Shown here piece after piece: positions 37,104 through 43,540 of a stretch of DNA of 64,000 bases. Location: NCBI GenBank assembly GCA_038209365.1, contig JBBQXS010000002.1:19038-83037 (forward strand), written 5' to 3'. Both the position numbers and the translations under genes were made by a program. The stretch's first letter is position 1; every line of letters begins with the position of its first letter. Under the pieces are notes generated by a model. That model saw only the letters and a program-made list of their open reading frames with translations. It was not told where the DNA came from and did no database searches. This DNA is from Acidimicrobiia bacterium. GTDB taxonomy: Bacteria; Actinomycetota; Acidimicrobiia; IMCC26256; PALSA-610.

Positions 37104-38951
37104 TTATTCGACTCGGTACGGGATAGACGTCACGGCGGTCCGTTTACGGAACAGCAGCCGACCCTTGAGGATCAGCGCGCTCTGGTTGTGCAGGAGGTGC
37201 TGCCACCAGTGTTCGACGAACAGTTCCGGAATCACCACGGTGATGATCGTGTTCGGCCAGCGTCGTTCGAGCTCGTCGACGAAACCCAGGGTTGCGTCGA
37301 TGAACGCAAGCGATGGCGAAACGACAATCTCGAGCGGTACTCGGAGATCGTGCCCCATCCATTCCTTCTCGATTCGCTCTGCGTCCTCGGGCGTCGCGAC
37401 GACGGTCGTGGCGAGGAGGTGATCGGGTGCGATCGACTCCGAGTAGGCGAGCGCTTCGAGCGCCCCCGCGTGCACCTGCCCCACCAACACGGCAACAACG
37501 TGTCGTCGCCTCGGGGGCCGATAGTCGGGCGGAGCATCCAGCGCGGTCGCGAAGGTCACGTAGTGGCGACGAATCGTCTTGAAAAGTATGACGATCATCG
37601 GGATCACCAGGATTGGGACCCACGCGCCGCTCGTGAACTTCGTGATCGCCACGATGAGCAGGACGAGCAGCGTCGCGACGGCTCCGATCGCATTGAGCAC
37701 TGTGCTTCGCCGCCAACCCGCTTCGCGGAGCCGCAGATGGTGGCGCACCATTCCCCACTGCGAAAGCGTGAAGGAGGTGAACACGCCGACTGCATACAGC
37801 GGGATCAGCGCGTTCGTCAGTCCGCCGAACGCGACAAGCAGCCCCGCGGCCGCCGCCGCGAGGACGATGATCCCGTTCGAGAACACGAGCCGGTCACCAC
37901 GATTCGCGAGTTGGCGGGGCAAATAGCCGTCCTTGGCGATGATCGATGACAGGCTCGGGAAGCCGTTGTACGCGGTGTTCGCGGCGAGCGTAAGGATCGC
38001 CGCCGTCGCGAATTGCAGGAGTACGAACAGGGCACCGCGACCGAACACCGCAATTCCCAGCTGGGCGATGACCGTGCGGTCGTGGCTCGGGTACGGACGG
38101 AGACGGTGCGCAAGCACTGAGACGCTGAAGAACAGACCACCCAGCAACACGCCCATCCAGACGAGCGTCGTTGCCGCGTTCCTCGCCTCCGGTCGCCGGA
38201 AAGCCGGCACACCGTTTGAGATCGCTTCGATACCGGTGAGCGCCACTGCGCCCGACGAGAAGCCTTTCAAGAGCAGGAACAAGCCGAGCGTTCCACCGGC
38301 CTCACGACTCCCGTCGAAGTTCTTCGGATCGAAAGGTACGGGATTGATGTGTCCGAAGTAGGAGCGCGAGAGGCCGTACACGACGAGCGCGCCGAGCACA
38401 CCCATGTAGATGTAGGTGGGCAACGCGAAGAAGCGGCCTGATTCCTTGACCCCTCGCATGTTCGTGAGCGTGATGAGCACGATCAGCACGACCCCGACGA
38501 TGACGCGCTGATGACGCAGTCCTTCGAATTGCGGGATCGAGATGATCGCCGCCACGCCGGCCGAGATCGACACGGCGACGGTGAGCACATAATCGACCAT
38601 CAACGATGCGCCTGCGACCAGCGATGCGAGTTCGCCGATGTTTTCGCGACTCACGACGTACGCGCCACCGCCGTTCGGATACGCAAAGATCACCTGGCGG
38701 TACGAGACGATCACGATGGCGAGCAAGGCCGCCACGACGACAGCAATCGGGACCAAGCGGCTGAGGCCCAGAGCGAGACTGGACGCGCCCACGGCGGTGA
38801 CGAAGAGGATCTCCTCGGTTGCGTACGCGGTCGACGACAGCGCATCTGATGAGAAGACCGCGAGCGCGATCCTCTTCGTCAGCCGCTGCTCCTCCATCTG
38901 GGTCGTTGCCAACGGTCGACCCACGAGGATCCGCTTCAAGAGCCCCAGCAT
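37104..38951 (-). CDS. APC family permease, KimA-like K+ transporter (copy 1)
   Basis: ALAVFSSDALSSTAYATEE, YPNGGGAY, VDYVLTVAVS, ALTGIEAISNG, WWQHLLHNQSAL. Confidence 0.9.
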   Translation of the reverse strand: MLGLLKRILVGRPLATTQMEEQRLTKRIALAVFSSDALSSTAYATEEILFVTAVGASSLALGLSRLVPIAVVVAALLAIVIVSYRQVIFAYPNGGGAYVVSRENIGELASLVAGASLMVDYVLTVAVSISAGVAAIISIPQFEGLRHQRVIVGVVLIVLITLTNMRGVKESGRFFALPTYIYMGVLGALVVYGLSRSYFGHINPVPFDPKNFDGSREAGGTLGLFLLLKGFSSGAVALTGIEAISNGVPAFRRPEARNAATTLVWMGVLLGGLFFSVSVLAHRLRPYPSHDRTVIAQLGIAVFGRGALFVLLQFATAAILTLAANTAYNGFPSLSSIIAKDGYLPRQLANRGDRLVFSNGIIVLAAAAAGLLVAFGGLTNALIPLYAVGVFTSFTLSQWGMVRHHLRLREAGWRRSTVLNAIGAVATLLVLLIVAITKFTSGAWVPILVIPMIVILFKTIRRHYVTFATALDAPPDYRPPRRRHVVAVLVGQVHAGALEALAYSESIAPDHLLATTVVATPEDAERIEKEWMGHDLRVPLEIVVSPSLAFIDATLGFVDELERRWPNTIITVVIPELFVEHWWQHLLHNQSALILKGRLLFRKRTAVTSIPYRVE

Positions 38952-38962
38952 TCAAGCCAAAA

Positions 38963-39760
38963 CTATTCGTCTCGGTGAGGATCAGGCACGTCTCGAACAA
39001 GACGTCCGAGATCTTCGGACGAGGCTGACGCAAACACACTTCCGAGCTGATCGGCCAGCGCAATCGCCACCACGCGCTCGTCCAACGTCACCGACCGGTC
39101 GGGGTCGCCCACCAGCACCATTCGCGCCACCTCGCGGCCCGATTCAACGACCGAAAGCTGCAGGCCGTACTCGGGAAGCGCGAATCCGCCCCCCACCCAG
39201 CGGTGCTCGGCACTTTGTATCGTGCCGGCGCGTTCGAGCACCGGCAGGGGCCATTGGAAGGGCGCGAGCTCGATCCAGCAGTCACGGAGCCGTAAGAGTG
39301 CGATCATCTCGTCCTTCACCAAGCGCGCGATCTCCTCGAGAGACGCCCCCATGGCAACTCGCTCCGCAACGCGGTGCACTCGACCGATCGCTTCGGCGGC
39401 GCGGTCGCGATCGCGCCGAAACCTACGACCTCTCGCCGCGACCTCACCGACCACCAGGCCGACGGCCAGGAGAATCATCACCGTCTCGACGTCGTCTGCG
39501 CTGTCCACGCGCATCGAAACGAATGGACGCGTCAGGAAGAAATCGAACGACAACGTCGCGCTGACCGCGGCGACCCCTCCCGCGGCTCGACCTCCGACGA
39601 TCGCCGCACACACCACGACAAGCACGAGAATCAACGCGAGATTCGCGTTGTCGATCACATCCCGCAGCGGCACGAGTGCGATCGCGACGGCGACCGAGCC
39701 GAGTCCGCCGAGCGCGAGCCCGGCCAACCTCCGGTCGTCGTCCTCCTGGTCTACCCGCAT
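38963..39760 (-). CDS. Stand-alone DUF4118 (KdpD-like TM) + GAF-like protein
   Basis: NANLAL..VLVVV.AAI.GG..G, LSFDFFLTRP TM signature; no kinase domain. Confidence 0.8.
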   Translation of the reverse strand: MRVDQEDDDRRLAGLALGGLGSVAVAIALVPLRDVIDNANLALILVLVVVCAAIVGGRAAGGVAAVSATLSFDFFLTRPFVSMRVDSADDVETVMILLAVGLVVGEVAARGRRFRRDRDRAAEAIGRVHRVAERVAMGASLEEIARLVKDEMIALLRLRDCWIELAPFQWPLPVLERAGTIQSAEHRWVGGGFALPEYGLQLSVVESGREVARMVLVGDPDRSVTLDERVVAIALADQLGSVFASASSEDLGRLVRDVPDPHRDE

Positions 39761-39847
39761 GGCGTCTTCATTCTCTCCCCATGCGAACGGCGCCGCCCGC
39801 ATCGACCGCTCTCCGGGAGCGGCCGATGTCGGCGGCACCCGATCCGT

Positions 39848-40201
<354 letters not shown>

Positions 40202-41441
40202 TCAGGCGCGCTCGAGCGCGTAGCCGCTCTCGGAATGCTGGGTGATGTCGAGCCCGCGGTCTTCGTCGTCTTCGGTGGCGCGGATACCGCCGGGGAGGAC
40301 CGCCTTGAGCGCCAATCCGATCGCGTACGAGACCGCGAACGAGAACAACAGCACCGCGCCGACCGCGATCAGCTGCTCACCGAAGAGTCCCCAGCCGCCG
40401 CCGAAGAATGCGCCGTCCTTGCCCGCCGGATTCACACTTGCGTCGGCAAACAAGCCGAGCAGCACCGAACCGATGATGCCGCCGACGAGATGGACGGCCA
40501 CGACGTCGAGCGAGTCGTCATAACCGAGCTTGAACTTCAGAGAGATCGCGAGATAACACACGCCACCTGCGATCCCACCGATCGCCACAGGCGCGAGCCC
40601 GCCGACGAAGCCCGCGCACGGGGTGATCGCGACCAGACCCGCGACCGCACCCGAGGCCGCGCCAAGGGTCGTCGCGTGGCCGTCCTTGATGCGCTCGACG
40701 ACGAGCCAGCCGAGCATTGCCGCCGCCGCCGCGACAAAGGTGTTGAGGAACGCTTGGGCCGCAACCAGGTTGGCGGCGAGTGCCGAGCCGGCATTGAACC
40801 CGAACCAACCGAACCAGAGAATGCCCGTTCCGAGCAGGGTGAGCGGCAACGAATGCGGCGGCATCGCCTCCCGCGGCCAGCCCCGCCGCCGGCCGAGCAG
40901 CAACACCAGCGCCAGCGCGGCTGCACCGGCGTTGACGTGCACGACGGTGCCCCCCGCGAAGTCGAGCGCACCGCGGTCGGCGAGCCACCCGCCCGCGAAC
41001 ACCCAGTGCGCGACGGGCAGATATACGAGGACCGACCACGCGGAGATGAAGCCGACCCAAGCAACCCACCGCATGCGATCGGCGATCGCGCCGGTGATGA
41101 GCGCGGGCGTGATCACCGCGAACGTGAGCTGAAACGCGACGAACGCAAGGGTCGGAATGGATCCCGACACGCCGTTGGTGAGGTCCTTCAACCCGACGTT
41201 GTCGAAGTTTCCGATCCAGCCGGCATTGCCGGTGTCCGAAGGCGAGGCTGTAACCGAACAGCACCCACAGGACCGTCGCGATCCCCATTGCGAAGAAGTT
41301 CTGCATCAACATTGCGAGCACGTTCTTGGCCCGTACCATCCCGCCGTAGAACAGCGCGAGGCCGGGAGTCATGAAAAGGACGAGCGCGGTGCTGGCGAGC
41401 ACCCACGCGGTATCTCCGGTATCGATCTCCGGCACGTTCAC
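40202..41441 (-). pseudogene. amtB: Ammonium transporter Amt, frameshifted near 41237 (real lesion or assembly indel)
   Basis: DTGDTAWVL..ALV.FMTPGLALFYGG in frame from 41441; FQLTFA, DFAGGTVVH, WFGWFGFNAGS, DDSLDV..VH in frame of ORF 40202..41191. Confidence 0.9.
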
Positions 41442-41525
41442 AGCTCCTGAGTGTGCGGGCGCGCGCGTGCGCGGCGCCCGAGCGGTCGCGGAACCGCGCG
41501 CGCGTACGTCTGTCGACGCGGGCGG

Positions 41526-41894
41526 TTAGCTCAGGGTGTCGCGAAGTGCCGGCGGCCCGCGACGCGTTGCGCTGCCGCGCCACTCGATGACGGGCACGAC
41601 CTTGTCGCGCATACGGGCGAGGGCGAGGCTCGTCGGGCAGGCGCACGCGATGAGGACGGCGCGCATCTGCCCGACGGGCCAGGTGAGGCGGGGTTGGTGC
41701 GGCTCGACGCGGGCCGCAAAGGAGACCAGATGCGACCGGATGGGCGACACCGCCGCGTATGAGGTCGCGGCGTCCCGTTGCGCGGCGCCCTTCGCGGCCG
41801 GCGATGCGACCGACACCAACACGCTCGCGACGAGAGCCGCGCTGACTGCGAAGCGAAAAAACCGCCGTTGCGTCGAGAGCAGATCAATGCCGAT
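41526..41894 (-). CDS. Candidate leader/arrest peptide with signal-like N-terminus and C-terminal RGPP
   Basis: ORF 41526..41822 frame stays open upstream, giving QRRFFRFAVSAALVASVLVSVASPAAKG; ends RRGPPALRDTLS; start codon uncertain. Confidence 0.55.
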   Translation of the reverse strand: MGIDLLSTQRRFFRFAVSAALVASVLVSVASPAAKGAAQRDAATSYAAVSPIRSHLVSFAARVEPHQPRLTWPVGQMRAVLIACACPTSLALARMRDKVVPVIEWRGSATRRGPPALRDTLS

Positions 41895-41916
41895 GGTCGA
41901 ATTCTGGCGACCAATT

Positions 41917-41954
41917 GTTACAGGAGTGTTCCGGAACGTGACACGCGTATGAAC
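41917..41954 (-). promoter_or_regulatory. GlnR-box-like array upstream of the amt operon leader
   Basis: Minus strand TTCAT-N6-GTCAC-N5-GGAAC-N6-GTAAC resembles GTNAC-N6-GAAAC boxes; CAGAAT -10-like hexamer at 41906-41901. Confidence 0.5.
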
Positions 41955-41980
41955 ATCGGCATGTGCTCACCGTCGCCGAC

Positions 41981-43540
41981 TCAGGCGGTCGTCGTTGTAC
42001 CGGGGGCCTCGCGGATCCAGACGTCGAGTCTTCCGACCCGCGTATGTCTGTAGCCGGCGCTGGATACTGATTGGCTCCATGCCTCGAGTTTTTTCTCGAG
42101 GCTCGGAGATCGTTTGGTCGTAAGAGGATCCGCGACGACGGCACGCGGTCTCGAATCTCGCGCGGGAAGCGACGCGACGACGTGGACGCGCTCGCTCGGC
42201 GACAACGCGAGTTGCATGACGTTCGCCGCACCGACAACGAACACTTCGTGCGCTCCTTGGCTCGCGATCAGCTGCGCCGCGCGTTCGTAGTCGCCCCGAT
42301 CGATCGTCGCGACGTTGACGACCGACGAGACGAGCATCACCGCGAGCACCACCGACCACGCGACGGCCAGCGTTTGAAACCACCCACCTCGCAACGCGTT
42401 CTTCACGACGGCCTGCGCGCCGACTCCGGCCGCGAGTACGAGGCCCGGAAGCCAGATCACGTAATAGTGGGCCAGCATCAGCCCACTGCCGATGGCAAGG
42501 CCGAAGTAGGTCACCACCGTCGCGGCGAGTCCATAGACCGCCGCCGCCCGAGCGGGCGAAAGCAACCCGATGACGGCGAGGATCACGAGCAGCGCGGTTC
42601 CGAATCCGCCGATCCCATCGCTCATGAACCGGAGGCCGGCCCACCAGGGCGCATGCTGGTAGATCTTGCTGCCGATCAGGATCGTGTGACCTGCCGCCGC
42701 GTGGGCGCCCTGGAAGCGCAGCATGTAATGGATCTGATCGAAGGACCCATGCCACCCGAGTGGCAGATACACAACCACGACCGCAGCGAGTCCGGTCGCA
42801 AGGTACGACCCGGTGAGCGCGAGCGACCGGGACCACTCCTGCCGGAGACGCCGCGTGCACACGAAGGAGAGCACGATCACGGGCGCGATGAGCAGCCCGG
42901 GCGCTTTGGAGGTCGCCGCCCATCCGGTGGCCAGGCCGGCAAGGGCCGCCCACGGCAGCGATCCCCGTGCTCGGGCCTCCCACCCGGCCCAGAGCGCGAG
43001 CGCGACGAAACCCGTCGCGACCGGATCGAGCAAGGCGAGCCGTTCGATGCGGGGGCCGGCGGGCGCATACCCACCCATGACGCCTGCGTGCGGAAGTAAT
43101 CCCCAGAAGGCAGCGGCAGAGATCGCGGCGACCAGGCCCACAAGGCGATATGCCCACACCGCGACGATGAGCGCTGTCGCGATGCCGGCGAGCGCGGAAA
43201 CGACCCGCGCCGACGTATAGCCCTGTCCGAAGAGCTCTTGCGCGAAGCCGAAGAGATACTTGACGAGCGGCGGCGCCTCACGAACCGATTTGAAGCTGCC
43301 GTGTACATACGCCCAACCGGAATGTACATAGGTGGGTTCGTCGACGGCGCGATCACCTCGACTGAGACCGAACAAGTGCACGAATGACGTCGCCGCAAGA
43401 ACAAGCGCGAGGAGCAAGAACCCAAGCCATCGTTGCGAAAGCGTGGCACGCCGATCGCGCCGACGATCGCGACTTCCGTCAACCTCGCGGGCGGGCGCTT
43501 CCACGGACTGGTGGACAAGCGCCTTGACGATCGCGATCAC
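41981..43540 (-). CDS. GT-C (ArnT/PMT-like) membrane glycosyltransferase
   Basis: DEPTY motif after first TM, PPLVKYL, ARVVSAL, ATSK, many TM helices. Confidence 0.8.
   Translation of the reverse strand: MIAIVKALVHQSVEAPAREVDGSRDRRRDRRATLSQRWLGFLLLALVLAATSFVHLFGLSRGDRAVDEPTYVHSGWAYVHGSFKSVREAPPLVKYLFGFAQELFGQGYTSARVVSALAGIATALIVAVWAYRLVGLVAAISAAAFWGLLPHAGVMGGYAPAGPRIERLALLDPVATGFVALALWAGWEARARGSLPWAALAGLATGWAATSKAPGLLIAPVIVLSFVCTRRLRQEWSRSLALTGSYLATGLAAVVVVYLPLGWHGSFDQIHYMLRFQGAHAAAGHTILIGSKIYQHAPWWAGLRFMSDGIGGFGTALLVILAVIGLLSPARAAAVYGLAATVVTYFGLAIGSGLMLAHYYVIWLPGLVLAAGVGAQAVVKNALRGGWFQTLAVAWSVVLAVMLVSSVVNVATIDRGDYERAAQLIASQGAHEVFVVGAANVMQLALSPSERVHVVASLPARDSRPRAVVADPLTTKRSPSLEKKLEAWSQSVSSAGYRHTRVGRLDVWIREAPGTTTTA

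Follow-up and report, generated by a model that had tools for sequence, protein, structure and literature searches.

The arrest peptides SecM (before secA of E. coli), MifM (before yidC2) and VemP (before secDF2) combine an N-terminal export or membrane signal with a C-terminal arrest in which Pro-tRNA occupies the A site, and a helix in the mRNA hides the downstream Shine-Dalgarno (SD) sequence until the stalled ribosome disrupts it (PMC7897499). A leader open reading frame (ORF) of the same general plan, with a similar helix predicted, was identified on the minus strand of a 64,000-nucleotide (nt) stretch of an Acidimicrobiia bacterium genome (GCA_038209365.1, contig JBBQXS010000002.1, positions 19,038 to 83,037), referred to here as the window. 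It lies in front of amt (PF00909), an ammonium transporter gene, and glnK (PF00543). Judged from its sequence, it is a genuine, conserved, lineage-restricted leader ORF with the sequence-level features of the RAPP/RGPP arrest-peptide class, and it is probably a new, lineage-restricted member of that class. Because its target lies outside the Sec/YidC machinery, the feedback logic of a 'monitoring substrate' does not carry over from the SecM-type systems. SecM also differs in its motif, RAGP rather than the RGPP found here, and the leader in the window has two hydrophobic segments.

ApdA and ApdP, with the motif RAPP, and ApcA, with RAPG, precede secDF or yidC. They are likewise small, with 100 to 130 amino acids (aa), begin with a signal or anchor and have their conserved arrest core at the C-terminus. 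Two of them, ApdA and ApcA, are found in actinobacteria, and PMC7897499, which gives search criteria for such leaders, predicts no SD-sequestering hairpin for ApcA, ApdA or ApdP. The present leader differs in its downstream gene and in having such a hairpin predicted; the lack of one in these three systems makes structure predictions of this kind weak guides. An earlier interpretation of the window, made from the letters alone (the sequence-only reading), had listed all three as RAPP/RGPP peptides. This is partly imprecise, as ApcA carries RAPG and neither of those motifs (PMC12992588).

The range of the class was extended by Fujiwara et al. (EMBO J, December 2025; PMC12992588), whose main text describes RAPP/RGPP leaders upstream of diverse genes, well beyond sec and yidC, and names sec genes, TonB receptors, copper proteins, DsbA/thioredoxin, sigma factors and enzymes as targets. 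Arrest at these motifs is reported there to be robust, refractory to EF-P and possible in many N-terminal contexts, RGPP being the most stable and context-tolerant. The two are the most avoided tetrapeptides in bacterial proteomes, with RGPP the most excluded across phyla, and they are concentrated close to the C-terminal end of small proteins that are secretory or membrane-bound. Seven small proteins of Streptomyces lividans carry RAPP or RGPP C-terminally, and every one of them arrested in vitro and in vivo in the same study. The leader in the window resembles these SLIV proteins in being a small Actinomycetota protein without known function, with R-[A/G]-P-P shortly before the stop, putative N-terminal signal or transmembrane segments, a gene downstream on the same strand and a motif that is depleted from the proteome. 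It differs in that the downstream gene is an ammonium transporter, followed by glnK; the likeness is one of plan, and arrest here is only predicted. CruR of Bordetella pertussis, a copper-responsive RAPP leader of a TonB-dependent receptor, shares the C-terminal R-x-P-P and a transport gene outside the secretion machinery. However, CruR binds its ligand through a Cys/His domain, with copper as the proposed trigger of release, whereas the loop of the present leader has no obvious ligand-binding residues and no ligand is put forward for it.

The main text of PMC12992588 does not name an ammonium transporter ('ammoni' occurs in its methods only, and the supplements lie outside this scope). No paper among those searched joins an ammonium transporter with an arrest peptide, and for amtB with a leader peptide or ribosome stalling there was nothing relevant among the matches listed. 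The amt target, of which the sequence-only reading knew no description, does appear to be new, but any claim to a new principle is weakened by the RAPP/RGPP leaders before diverse genes that PMC12992588 already describes.

The leader frame and its conservation

The frame is open on the minus strand over 41966..41526, following an in-frame TGA (41969-41967). It reads ...STQRRFFRFAVSAALVASVLVSVASPAAKG...EWRGSATRRGPPALRDTLS and ends ...WRGSATRRGPPALRDTLS, its stop codon being TAA 41528-41526. On this strand it fills a 540-nt gap between an ORF for a PMT_2-type glycosyltransferase (41981..43540) and amt, and the distance from its stop to amt is 84 nt to GTG 41441 or 90 nt to GTG 41435. The co-oriented ORF, its RGPP codons at 41561-41550 and the 84-nt distance agree with the positions given in the sequence-only reading. 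The ORF is drawn provisionally over 41526..41894 (minus strand, 122 codons), from a conserved in-frame ATC at 41894 to the TAA at 41526. Going downstream, a canonical start codon first appears in frame at GTG 41822, an option in the sequence-only reading, which noted that it loses most of the signal; it would give 98 aa.

Open frames alone mean little here because the window is GC-rich (68% G+C). The G+C content by codon position of the leader, 0.71/0.61/0.88, is coding-like and resembles that of the adjoining amt and glnK. Four genomes carry the frame: G000, the genome of the window itself, G004 from the same genus, and G012 and G021 from two further genera. In all four it is stop-free and the third-position G+C (GC3) is maximal in it. 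A second sense frame is likewise without stops across the same 114 codons in all four genomes, as is one antisense frame in three of them. The antisense ORF at 41536..41952 (plus strand) was rejected; its third codon positions coincide with those of the leader frame, yet the G+C at its first position is lower than at its second, and antisense frames are interrupted by stops in at least one relative.

Pfam has no family for the leader at E <= 0.01. Rfam gave no leader match, the best E-values of 0.7 and 0.86 being far below gathering scores, and a consensus scan of 41350-42150 found no terminator-like site with a U-tract. The locus is unlike trpL-type attenuation leaders, whose ORF is very short, has regulatory codons in runs and is followed by terminator/antiterminator hairpins; it has about 115 codons, no terminator-like site and no Rfam leader.

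A translated-frame search of 40 related genomes, G000 included, returned one strong match beyond G000, in G004 (61% identity, E = 3e-46). The G004 homologue has 114 aa and a TTG start, reads MKHRRQVHFALAAFLVVGALVAIAG...LGWRGSATRRGPPVLRDALI* and is directly upstream of amt. The regions upstream of 29 amt loci in relatives were scanned for co-oriented frames with arrest-like C-terminal motifs, which recovered G000 and G004 and added G012 as a third case (114 aa, ATG start, ending ...NVNRRGPPHHATLI*, 56 nt before amt). A fourth, in G021, came from a search with a profile built from these; its C-terminus is ...SVSRRGPPRPATLI*, and an intact amt follows after 55 nt. The sequence-only reading had proposed looking for conserved upstream ORFs (uORFs) ending in R[AG]PP before related amt genes, and in all four genomes with the ORF family the frame ends RRGPP-x6-7-stop, always next to amt. 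In these four genomes, representing three genera, amt is 55-91 nt downstream on the same strand. The upstream neighbours are different in each (a PMT_2 glycosyltransferase, a divergent STAS-like ORF, a repeat protein and a membrane protein, the last three labels being read from translations) and amt is downstream in every one, therefore the leader travels with amt. The amt orthologues that have a leader form a tight group, with 90-97% identity across the first 67 residues.

The further relatives in the protein catalogues searched are P0005, P0006, P0007, P0010 and P0011 only, P0010 resembling the G012 protein and P0011 being a G021-type protein called from an internal GTG. A scan of genome contigs had the G004 contig as its sole match, and scans of metagenome contigs with the alignment and with P0005 gave no leader locus. 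There is no leader ORF upstream of the second amt paralogue of G000 (contig C34).

The common plan of the peptides is a basic stretch containing RR, a hydrophobic segment (H1), about 45 residues, a second hydrophobic segment (H2), 19-21 mostly basic residues, RRGPP, 6-7 residues and the stop, in ORFs of about 114-122 aa. H1 (FFRFAVSAALVASVLVSVA, after RR; 41805..41861, minus strand) has a 15-residue Kyte-Doolittle mean (KD15) of 2.41 and is like a signal peptide or signal anchor; its equivalents in G004, G012 and G021 have values of 2.4-2.85. The basic and hydrophobic N-terminal pattern recognized in the sequence-only reading recurs, with RR and H1 in all four genomes, although a canonical start precedes H1 in G004 and G012 only. 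H2 (AVLIACACPTSLALA; 41616..41660, minus strand) has a KD15 of 2.07 and stops 21 residues short of the first RGPP proline. Overall, the KD15 of H2 is 1.8-2.8, with that of G012 and G021 (2.3-2.8) indicating a clear transmembrane helix and the G000/G004 lineage having a weaker one. The spacing from H2 to the stall site, counted by hand, is 19-21 residues in all four genomes, and at the predicted stall H2 would still be within the exit tunnel with H1 and the loop outside.

The RRGPP codons (41550..41564, minus strand) are invariant at the peptide level in every sequence found, namely the four genomic ORFs and the five catalogue proteins, even where overall identity to the G004 protein falls to 27-32%. 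The hydrophobic segments are also retained at this level of identity. Across the four genomes the codons differ by synonymous third-position changes only: CGT/CGA/CGG/CGG, CGC in all four, GGG/GGC/GGA/GGG, CCG/CCG/CCC/CCA and CCG/CCG/CCG/CCC. The leaders of G000 and G004 are separated by one 6-nt indel, which is in frame. The motif and the tail are the most conserved part of the leader, above the hydrophobic and loop regions.

In a crude set of 3,483 ORFs from G000, RGPP occurs 11 times against 35 expected, an approximately three-fold depletion, and RAPP 21 times against 51, with the controls AGPP (40 observed, 47 expected) and AAPP (59 observed, 68 expected). There are 48,468 open frames of 45-320 aa in G000, of which 230 have R[AG]PP within the last 15 aa, and the leader is the sole one of these to pass filters for a coding-like GC pattern and hydrophobicity. 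An A[AG]PP control likewise leaves one frame after filtering, so the motif is not significant in G000 alone and the case rests on conservation, not on the count from a single genome.

Several candidates were not accepted. Three profile matches are marginal: G003, which has an E-value of 0.008 and contains stops, and G167 and G125 (E ~1e-3 each); the locus in G167 has neither amt nor RGPP. Other motif-bearing frames upstream of amt, among them L023 (RDPP ending a 322-aa Arg-rich frame) and L022 (RAGP, 440 nt off), were set aside, as these look like out-of-frame shadows. The leader query also matches eight short stretches of P0008, a protein of 886 aa (E = 4e-8, 36% identity), probably low-complexity Ala/Ser-rich repeats.

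Predicted mRNA pairing, candidate start codon and probable promoter

The ribosome-binding site (RBS) of amt (41433..41449, minus strand) consists of the SD sequence AGGAG at 41448-41444 and the GTG at 41435-41433, the amt start that is conserved in all four related genomes. Between the leader and the RBS is a GC-rich spacer with local hairpins (41452..41525, minus strand). It comes in two lengths, 90-91 nt (G000 and G004) and 55-56 nt (G012 and G021), and its hairpin adjacent to the SD is conserved in all four. The AGGAG and the GC-rich self-complementary runs reported near the amt start in the sequence-only reading are both present, the latter as GC-alternating runs at approximately 41505-41494 and 41477-41457.

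The last codons of the leader and its stop (41526..41552, minus strand) are predicted to act as an anti-RBS. The ensembles predicted for G000, G012 and G021 have the SD, spacer and GTG of amt paired with nucleotides +4 to +23 past the first Pro codon, the P site of the predicted stall, with pair probabilities of about 1.0 in G000 and G012 and of 0.4-0.95 in G021. A duplex search finds the same three tail-RBS helices in G004, and overall the SD-hiding helix is in three of the four minimum-energy folds and in four of four by duplex search. The core of the pairing is CCCUGA in the tail with UCAGG or UCGGG at the SD. One double-sided change keeps a pair, with G-C in G000 (CCUGAG/CUCAGG) becoming U-A in G012 (CCUGAU/AUCAGG). 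MAFFT failed to align the tails of short-spacer and long-spacer leaders, and these comparisons were read by hand from the duplex search.

The tail is the best or near-best partner of the RBS within the leader. Its duplex with the RBS in G000, at -30.3 kcal/mol, is matched by none of the 142 other uORF windows; across the four genomes the windows that reach the energy of the tail number 0/142, 2/146, 8/153 and 31/153. A stall was simulated by keeping 31 nt around the stall site single-stranded and computing the energy needed to open the RBS. Between the free mRNA and the ribosome at the stall, the predicted energy falls from 20.3 to 11.6 kcal/mol in G000, from 15.9 to 12.8 in G012, from 13.6 to 10.9 in G021 and from 10.5 to 9.4 in G004. 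In G000, G012 and G021 the drop starts 1-3 codons ahead of the stall position.

Upstream of the leader is a promoter- or operator-like block (41895..41954, minus strand) with GTCAC at 41942-41938, GGAAC at 41932-41928 and GTAAC at 41921-41917, at a spacing of about 11 nt, and a -10-like hexamer, CAGAAT, at 41906-41901. The block is kept between G000 and G004 and the sequence farther upstream is not. Direct repeats of the form G(G/A)AAC-n6-GTAAC precede the hexamer in all four genomes, and G000 and G004 have the extra GTCAC one helical turn upstream. In actinomycetes the GlnR box is gTnAc-n6-GaAAc (PMC5826061), which the repeats resemble; because of this likeness the putative promoter is probably nitrogen-regulated. 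A consensus scan found no sigma-70 promoter between 41350 and 42150. Together with the absence of a terminator, this fits an activator-dependent promoter before the leader and a single transcript of leader and amt.

The -10-like hexamer (CAGAAT, CAGACT, CAGACT and CACGCT in the four genomes), followed by 6 nt and the in-frame ATC at 41894 in the window, is the sole candidate for a start that is present in all four. The sequence-only reading had pointed to this ATC behind CAGAAT, and the arrangement is now seen to be common to the four genomes. In G012 an ATG follows the conserved ATC immediately. Either the A of ATC is the transcription start, in which case the mRNA of G012 would be nearly leaderless, or the ATC is itself a non-canonical start codon.

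The same reading had suggested that the T6 run at 41861-41856 is really T7, which would rescue TTG 41887 as a start. This is refuted, as contigs from three runs in two studies (X1 and X3; X2) lack the indel and the independent P0006 has the same RRFFRF. The far-upstream start annotated for P0006 was also rejected; the window has TGA there, G004 is unrelated there and the site is upstream of the promoter-like block. Entry from TTG 41887, in the +1 frame, by a -1 frameshift on the heptamer T TTT TTC is a remote idea that would apply to the G000 lineage only and is probably a coincidence, the heptamer being absent from G004, G012 and G021.

How the leader may act

There is about an even chance that the leader is a peptide of about 115 aa that functions as a member of the RAPP/RGPP class and controls the translation of amt. 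On this reading, a promoter just upstream, probably dependent on GlnR, would yield a single leader-amt-glnK mRNA. In the free mRNA the 20-25 nt past the stall point, covering the last 6-7 codons and the stop, would pair with the amt SD and GTG. The nascent leader would present RR and H1 at its N-terminus, then a loop of some 45 aa, then H2 and a basic tail, and the ribosome would stall at RRGP-P, its P site occupied by the first Pro codon (CCG 41555-41553) and its A site by the second (CCG 41552-41550). This placement is by analogy with the toeprint of CruR, which stalls with two Pro codons in these sites (PMC12992588). The stalled ribosome would cover the tail and expose the amt RBS, so that Amt synthesis would scale with the duration of the stall, and release would close the RBS again. 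Release, the most tentative step of all, would most probably come from a pulling force generated as H1, the loop or H2 is targeted to or inserted in the membrane during translation.

A more specific version is unlikely. In it a nascent-chain sensor gates nitrogen uptake: a GlnR-type promoter gives a nearly leaderless mRNA, translation starts at a non-canonical AUC 6 nt past the -10, and the length of the stall, set by insertion of the leader or by its meeting existing Amt, decides how long the amt RBS is open. If true, this would be the first arrest peptide over a nutrient channel and a second, translational layer of control on top of GlnR and GlnK.

Several results weigh against control of amt by an arrested leader. 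There is no evident reason why a membrane-insertion signal should raise the synthesis of an 11-helix membrane protein, and this is unexplained. A canonical start before H1 is present in G004 (TTG) and G012 (ATG) only, with none in G000, the near-identical P0006 lineage or G021, and no SD sequence is visible before any candidate start of the leader. The dN/dS ratio is 0.49 for G000 and G004 and 0.7-0.8 for more distant pairs, and the peptide outside the motif is weakly constrained. The amt gene of the window is itself split in its Pfam match, with positions 1-61 in one frame and 80-399 in another. The leader is also rare: profile searches, which scored few candidates per genome so that absence is to be read as 'not found' rather than as proven, gave four robust matches in 62 genomes of the family, the same four in 263 genomes of the order and G000 only in an even, class-wide sample of 401. 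Related amt genes of about 80% identity in G013, G029, G030 and G006 have no such ORF upstream.

The RNA evidence has its own difficulties. The minimum-energy fold of G004 gives the RBS another partner, the folding energies of whole leaders are no better than those of shuffles (z = -0.86 and +0.36), and in a set of 29 amt leaders of relatives the RBS opening energies of the three with a uORF (L036, L014 and L018) come only 6th, 12th and 24th. With four sequences there is almost no power to detect covariation in the tail-RBS pairing. The predicted switch, in which the tail pairs with the amt SD and start, is therefore suggestive only.

These ranks and shuffles would suit a rather unlikely alternative, that the product of the ORF is simply a small protein of the amt operon, membrane-bound or secreted and perhaps an accessory subunit of Amt, in which RRGPP serves the function or biogenesis of the protein itself, for example as an insertion pause, and not the control of amt. 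RBS occlusion no stronger than in amt leaders without the ORF and folding no better than shuffles are in keeping with it, as are the length, which is normal for a small protein, and the two conserved hydrophobic segments; the comparison with ApcA, ApdA and ApdP, for which no SD-sequestering hairpin is predicted either (PMC7897499), may be set beside these. However, it is the motif and the tail that are most conserved, not the hydrophobic or loop regions, and a structural subunit would be expected to have a dN/dS below the 0.5-0.8 obtained. In the proteins of G000, RGPP shows a roughly three-fold depletion, and it is reported to be the most excluded tetrapeptide (PMC12992588); its being kept despite this implies a use for stalling. 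The tail nucleotides are, in addition, complementary to the amt SD in all four genomes.

A stall could also serve localisation. Tethering of mRNA and ribosome has been proposed for SecM-SecA and, in eukaryotes, for XBP1u, and here a paused ribosome with H1 and H2 in its nascent chain would hold the amt-glnK mRNA at the membrane, allowing Amt to be synthesized at the translocon. The anatomy is that of amt control by arrest, and the proposal supplies a rationale for a membrane-targeted leader before a polytopic Amt that has no signal peptide. It is nevertheless improbable, as close amt orthologues manage without a leader and the complementarity of tail and RBS, which is seen, would not be needed. 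That the region is an untranslated 5' leader RNA, with the frame and RGPP arising incidentally from a GC-rich sequence that is kept for its role as RNA or DNA, is very improbable: it would account for the lack of an SD and, in two lineages, of a canonical start before H1, for the second stop-free sense frame and for RGPP as one of the 230 chance R[AG]PP endings, but not for purely synonymous variation in the RRGPP codons, an in-frame 6-nt indel, GC3 highest in the leader frame of all four genomes, hydrophobic segments that persist at 27-32% identity or the absence of an Rfam match.

The amt region and the significance of the leader

The amt gene (40202..41435, minus strand) has the N-terminus VPEIDTGDTAW... 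and is broken by a 2-nt deletion next to 41235, the frame being lost after the codons for ...YSLAFG (41230-41240). Contigs of X2 and X4, two other soil runs, have two extra letters behind 41235 that restore the frame, and the contig of X1, the probable source run, agrees with the window. The frameshift is either a real pseudogene in the population or an error shared with the source reads. The amt genes of G004 (L002 ~1000-1060) and G012 (L036 ~2200-2240) are also frameshifted, at different places and by a 1-nt indel each, an extra C in a C run and a missing G in GCGGCG. Thus amt is broken in three of the four leader-bearing genomes and intact in G021, through assembly error or decay.

The Pfam match to glnK (P-II) is at 39848..40186 (minus strand). 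Downstream of it (37104-39838, minus strand) are an ORF of 291 aa with a DUF4118 domain and an amino-acid permease of 615 aa, and no glnD-like gene was seen among the ORFs scanned. The second amt paralogue of G000 is 71% identical; its region and an ORF of 239 aa lie at C34:43044-43763 and C34:46657-47607 (both minus strand), this ORF being about 3 kb downstream of the paralogue and ending ...PPRAPPWRESG*. Elsewhere in G000, an ORF of 371 aa with an HNH-like C-terminal region (C7:67102-68217, plus strand) ends exactly ...DRAPP*.

The presence of the leader in only four of the 263 genomes of the order limits its general importance. The locus is compact and easily tested, having one motif, one predicted helix and the need for one reporter. 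It raises a question that PMC12992588 leaves open, namely how a stall is released if the leader is handled by machinery other than its target. The RAPP/RGPP arrest peptides were first tied to the secretion machinery and were extended in 2025 to metal, redox and sigma-factor genes. An amt-glnK target would extend the arrest-peptide principle to nitrogen acquisition, the control of which is regarded as well mapped, through transcription by GlnR and the plugging of Amt by GlnK.

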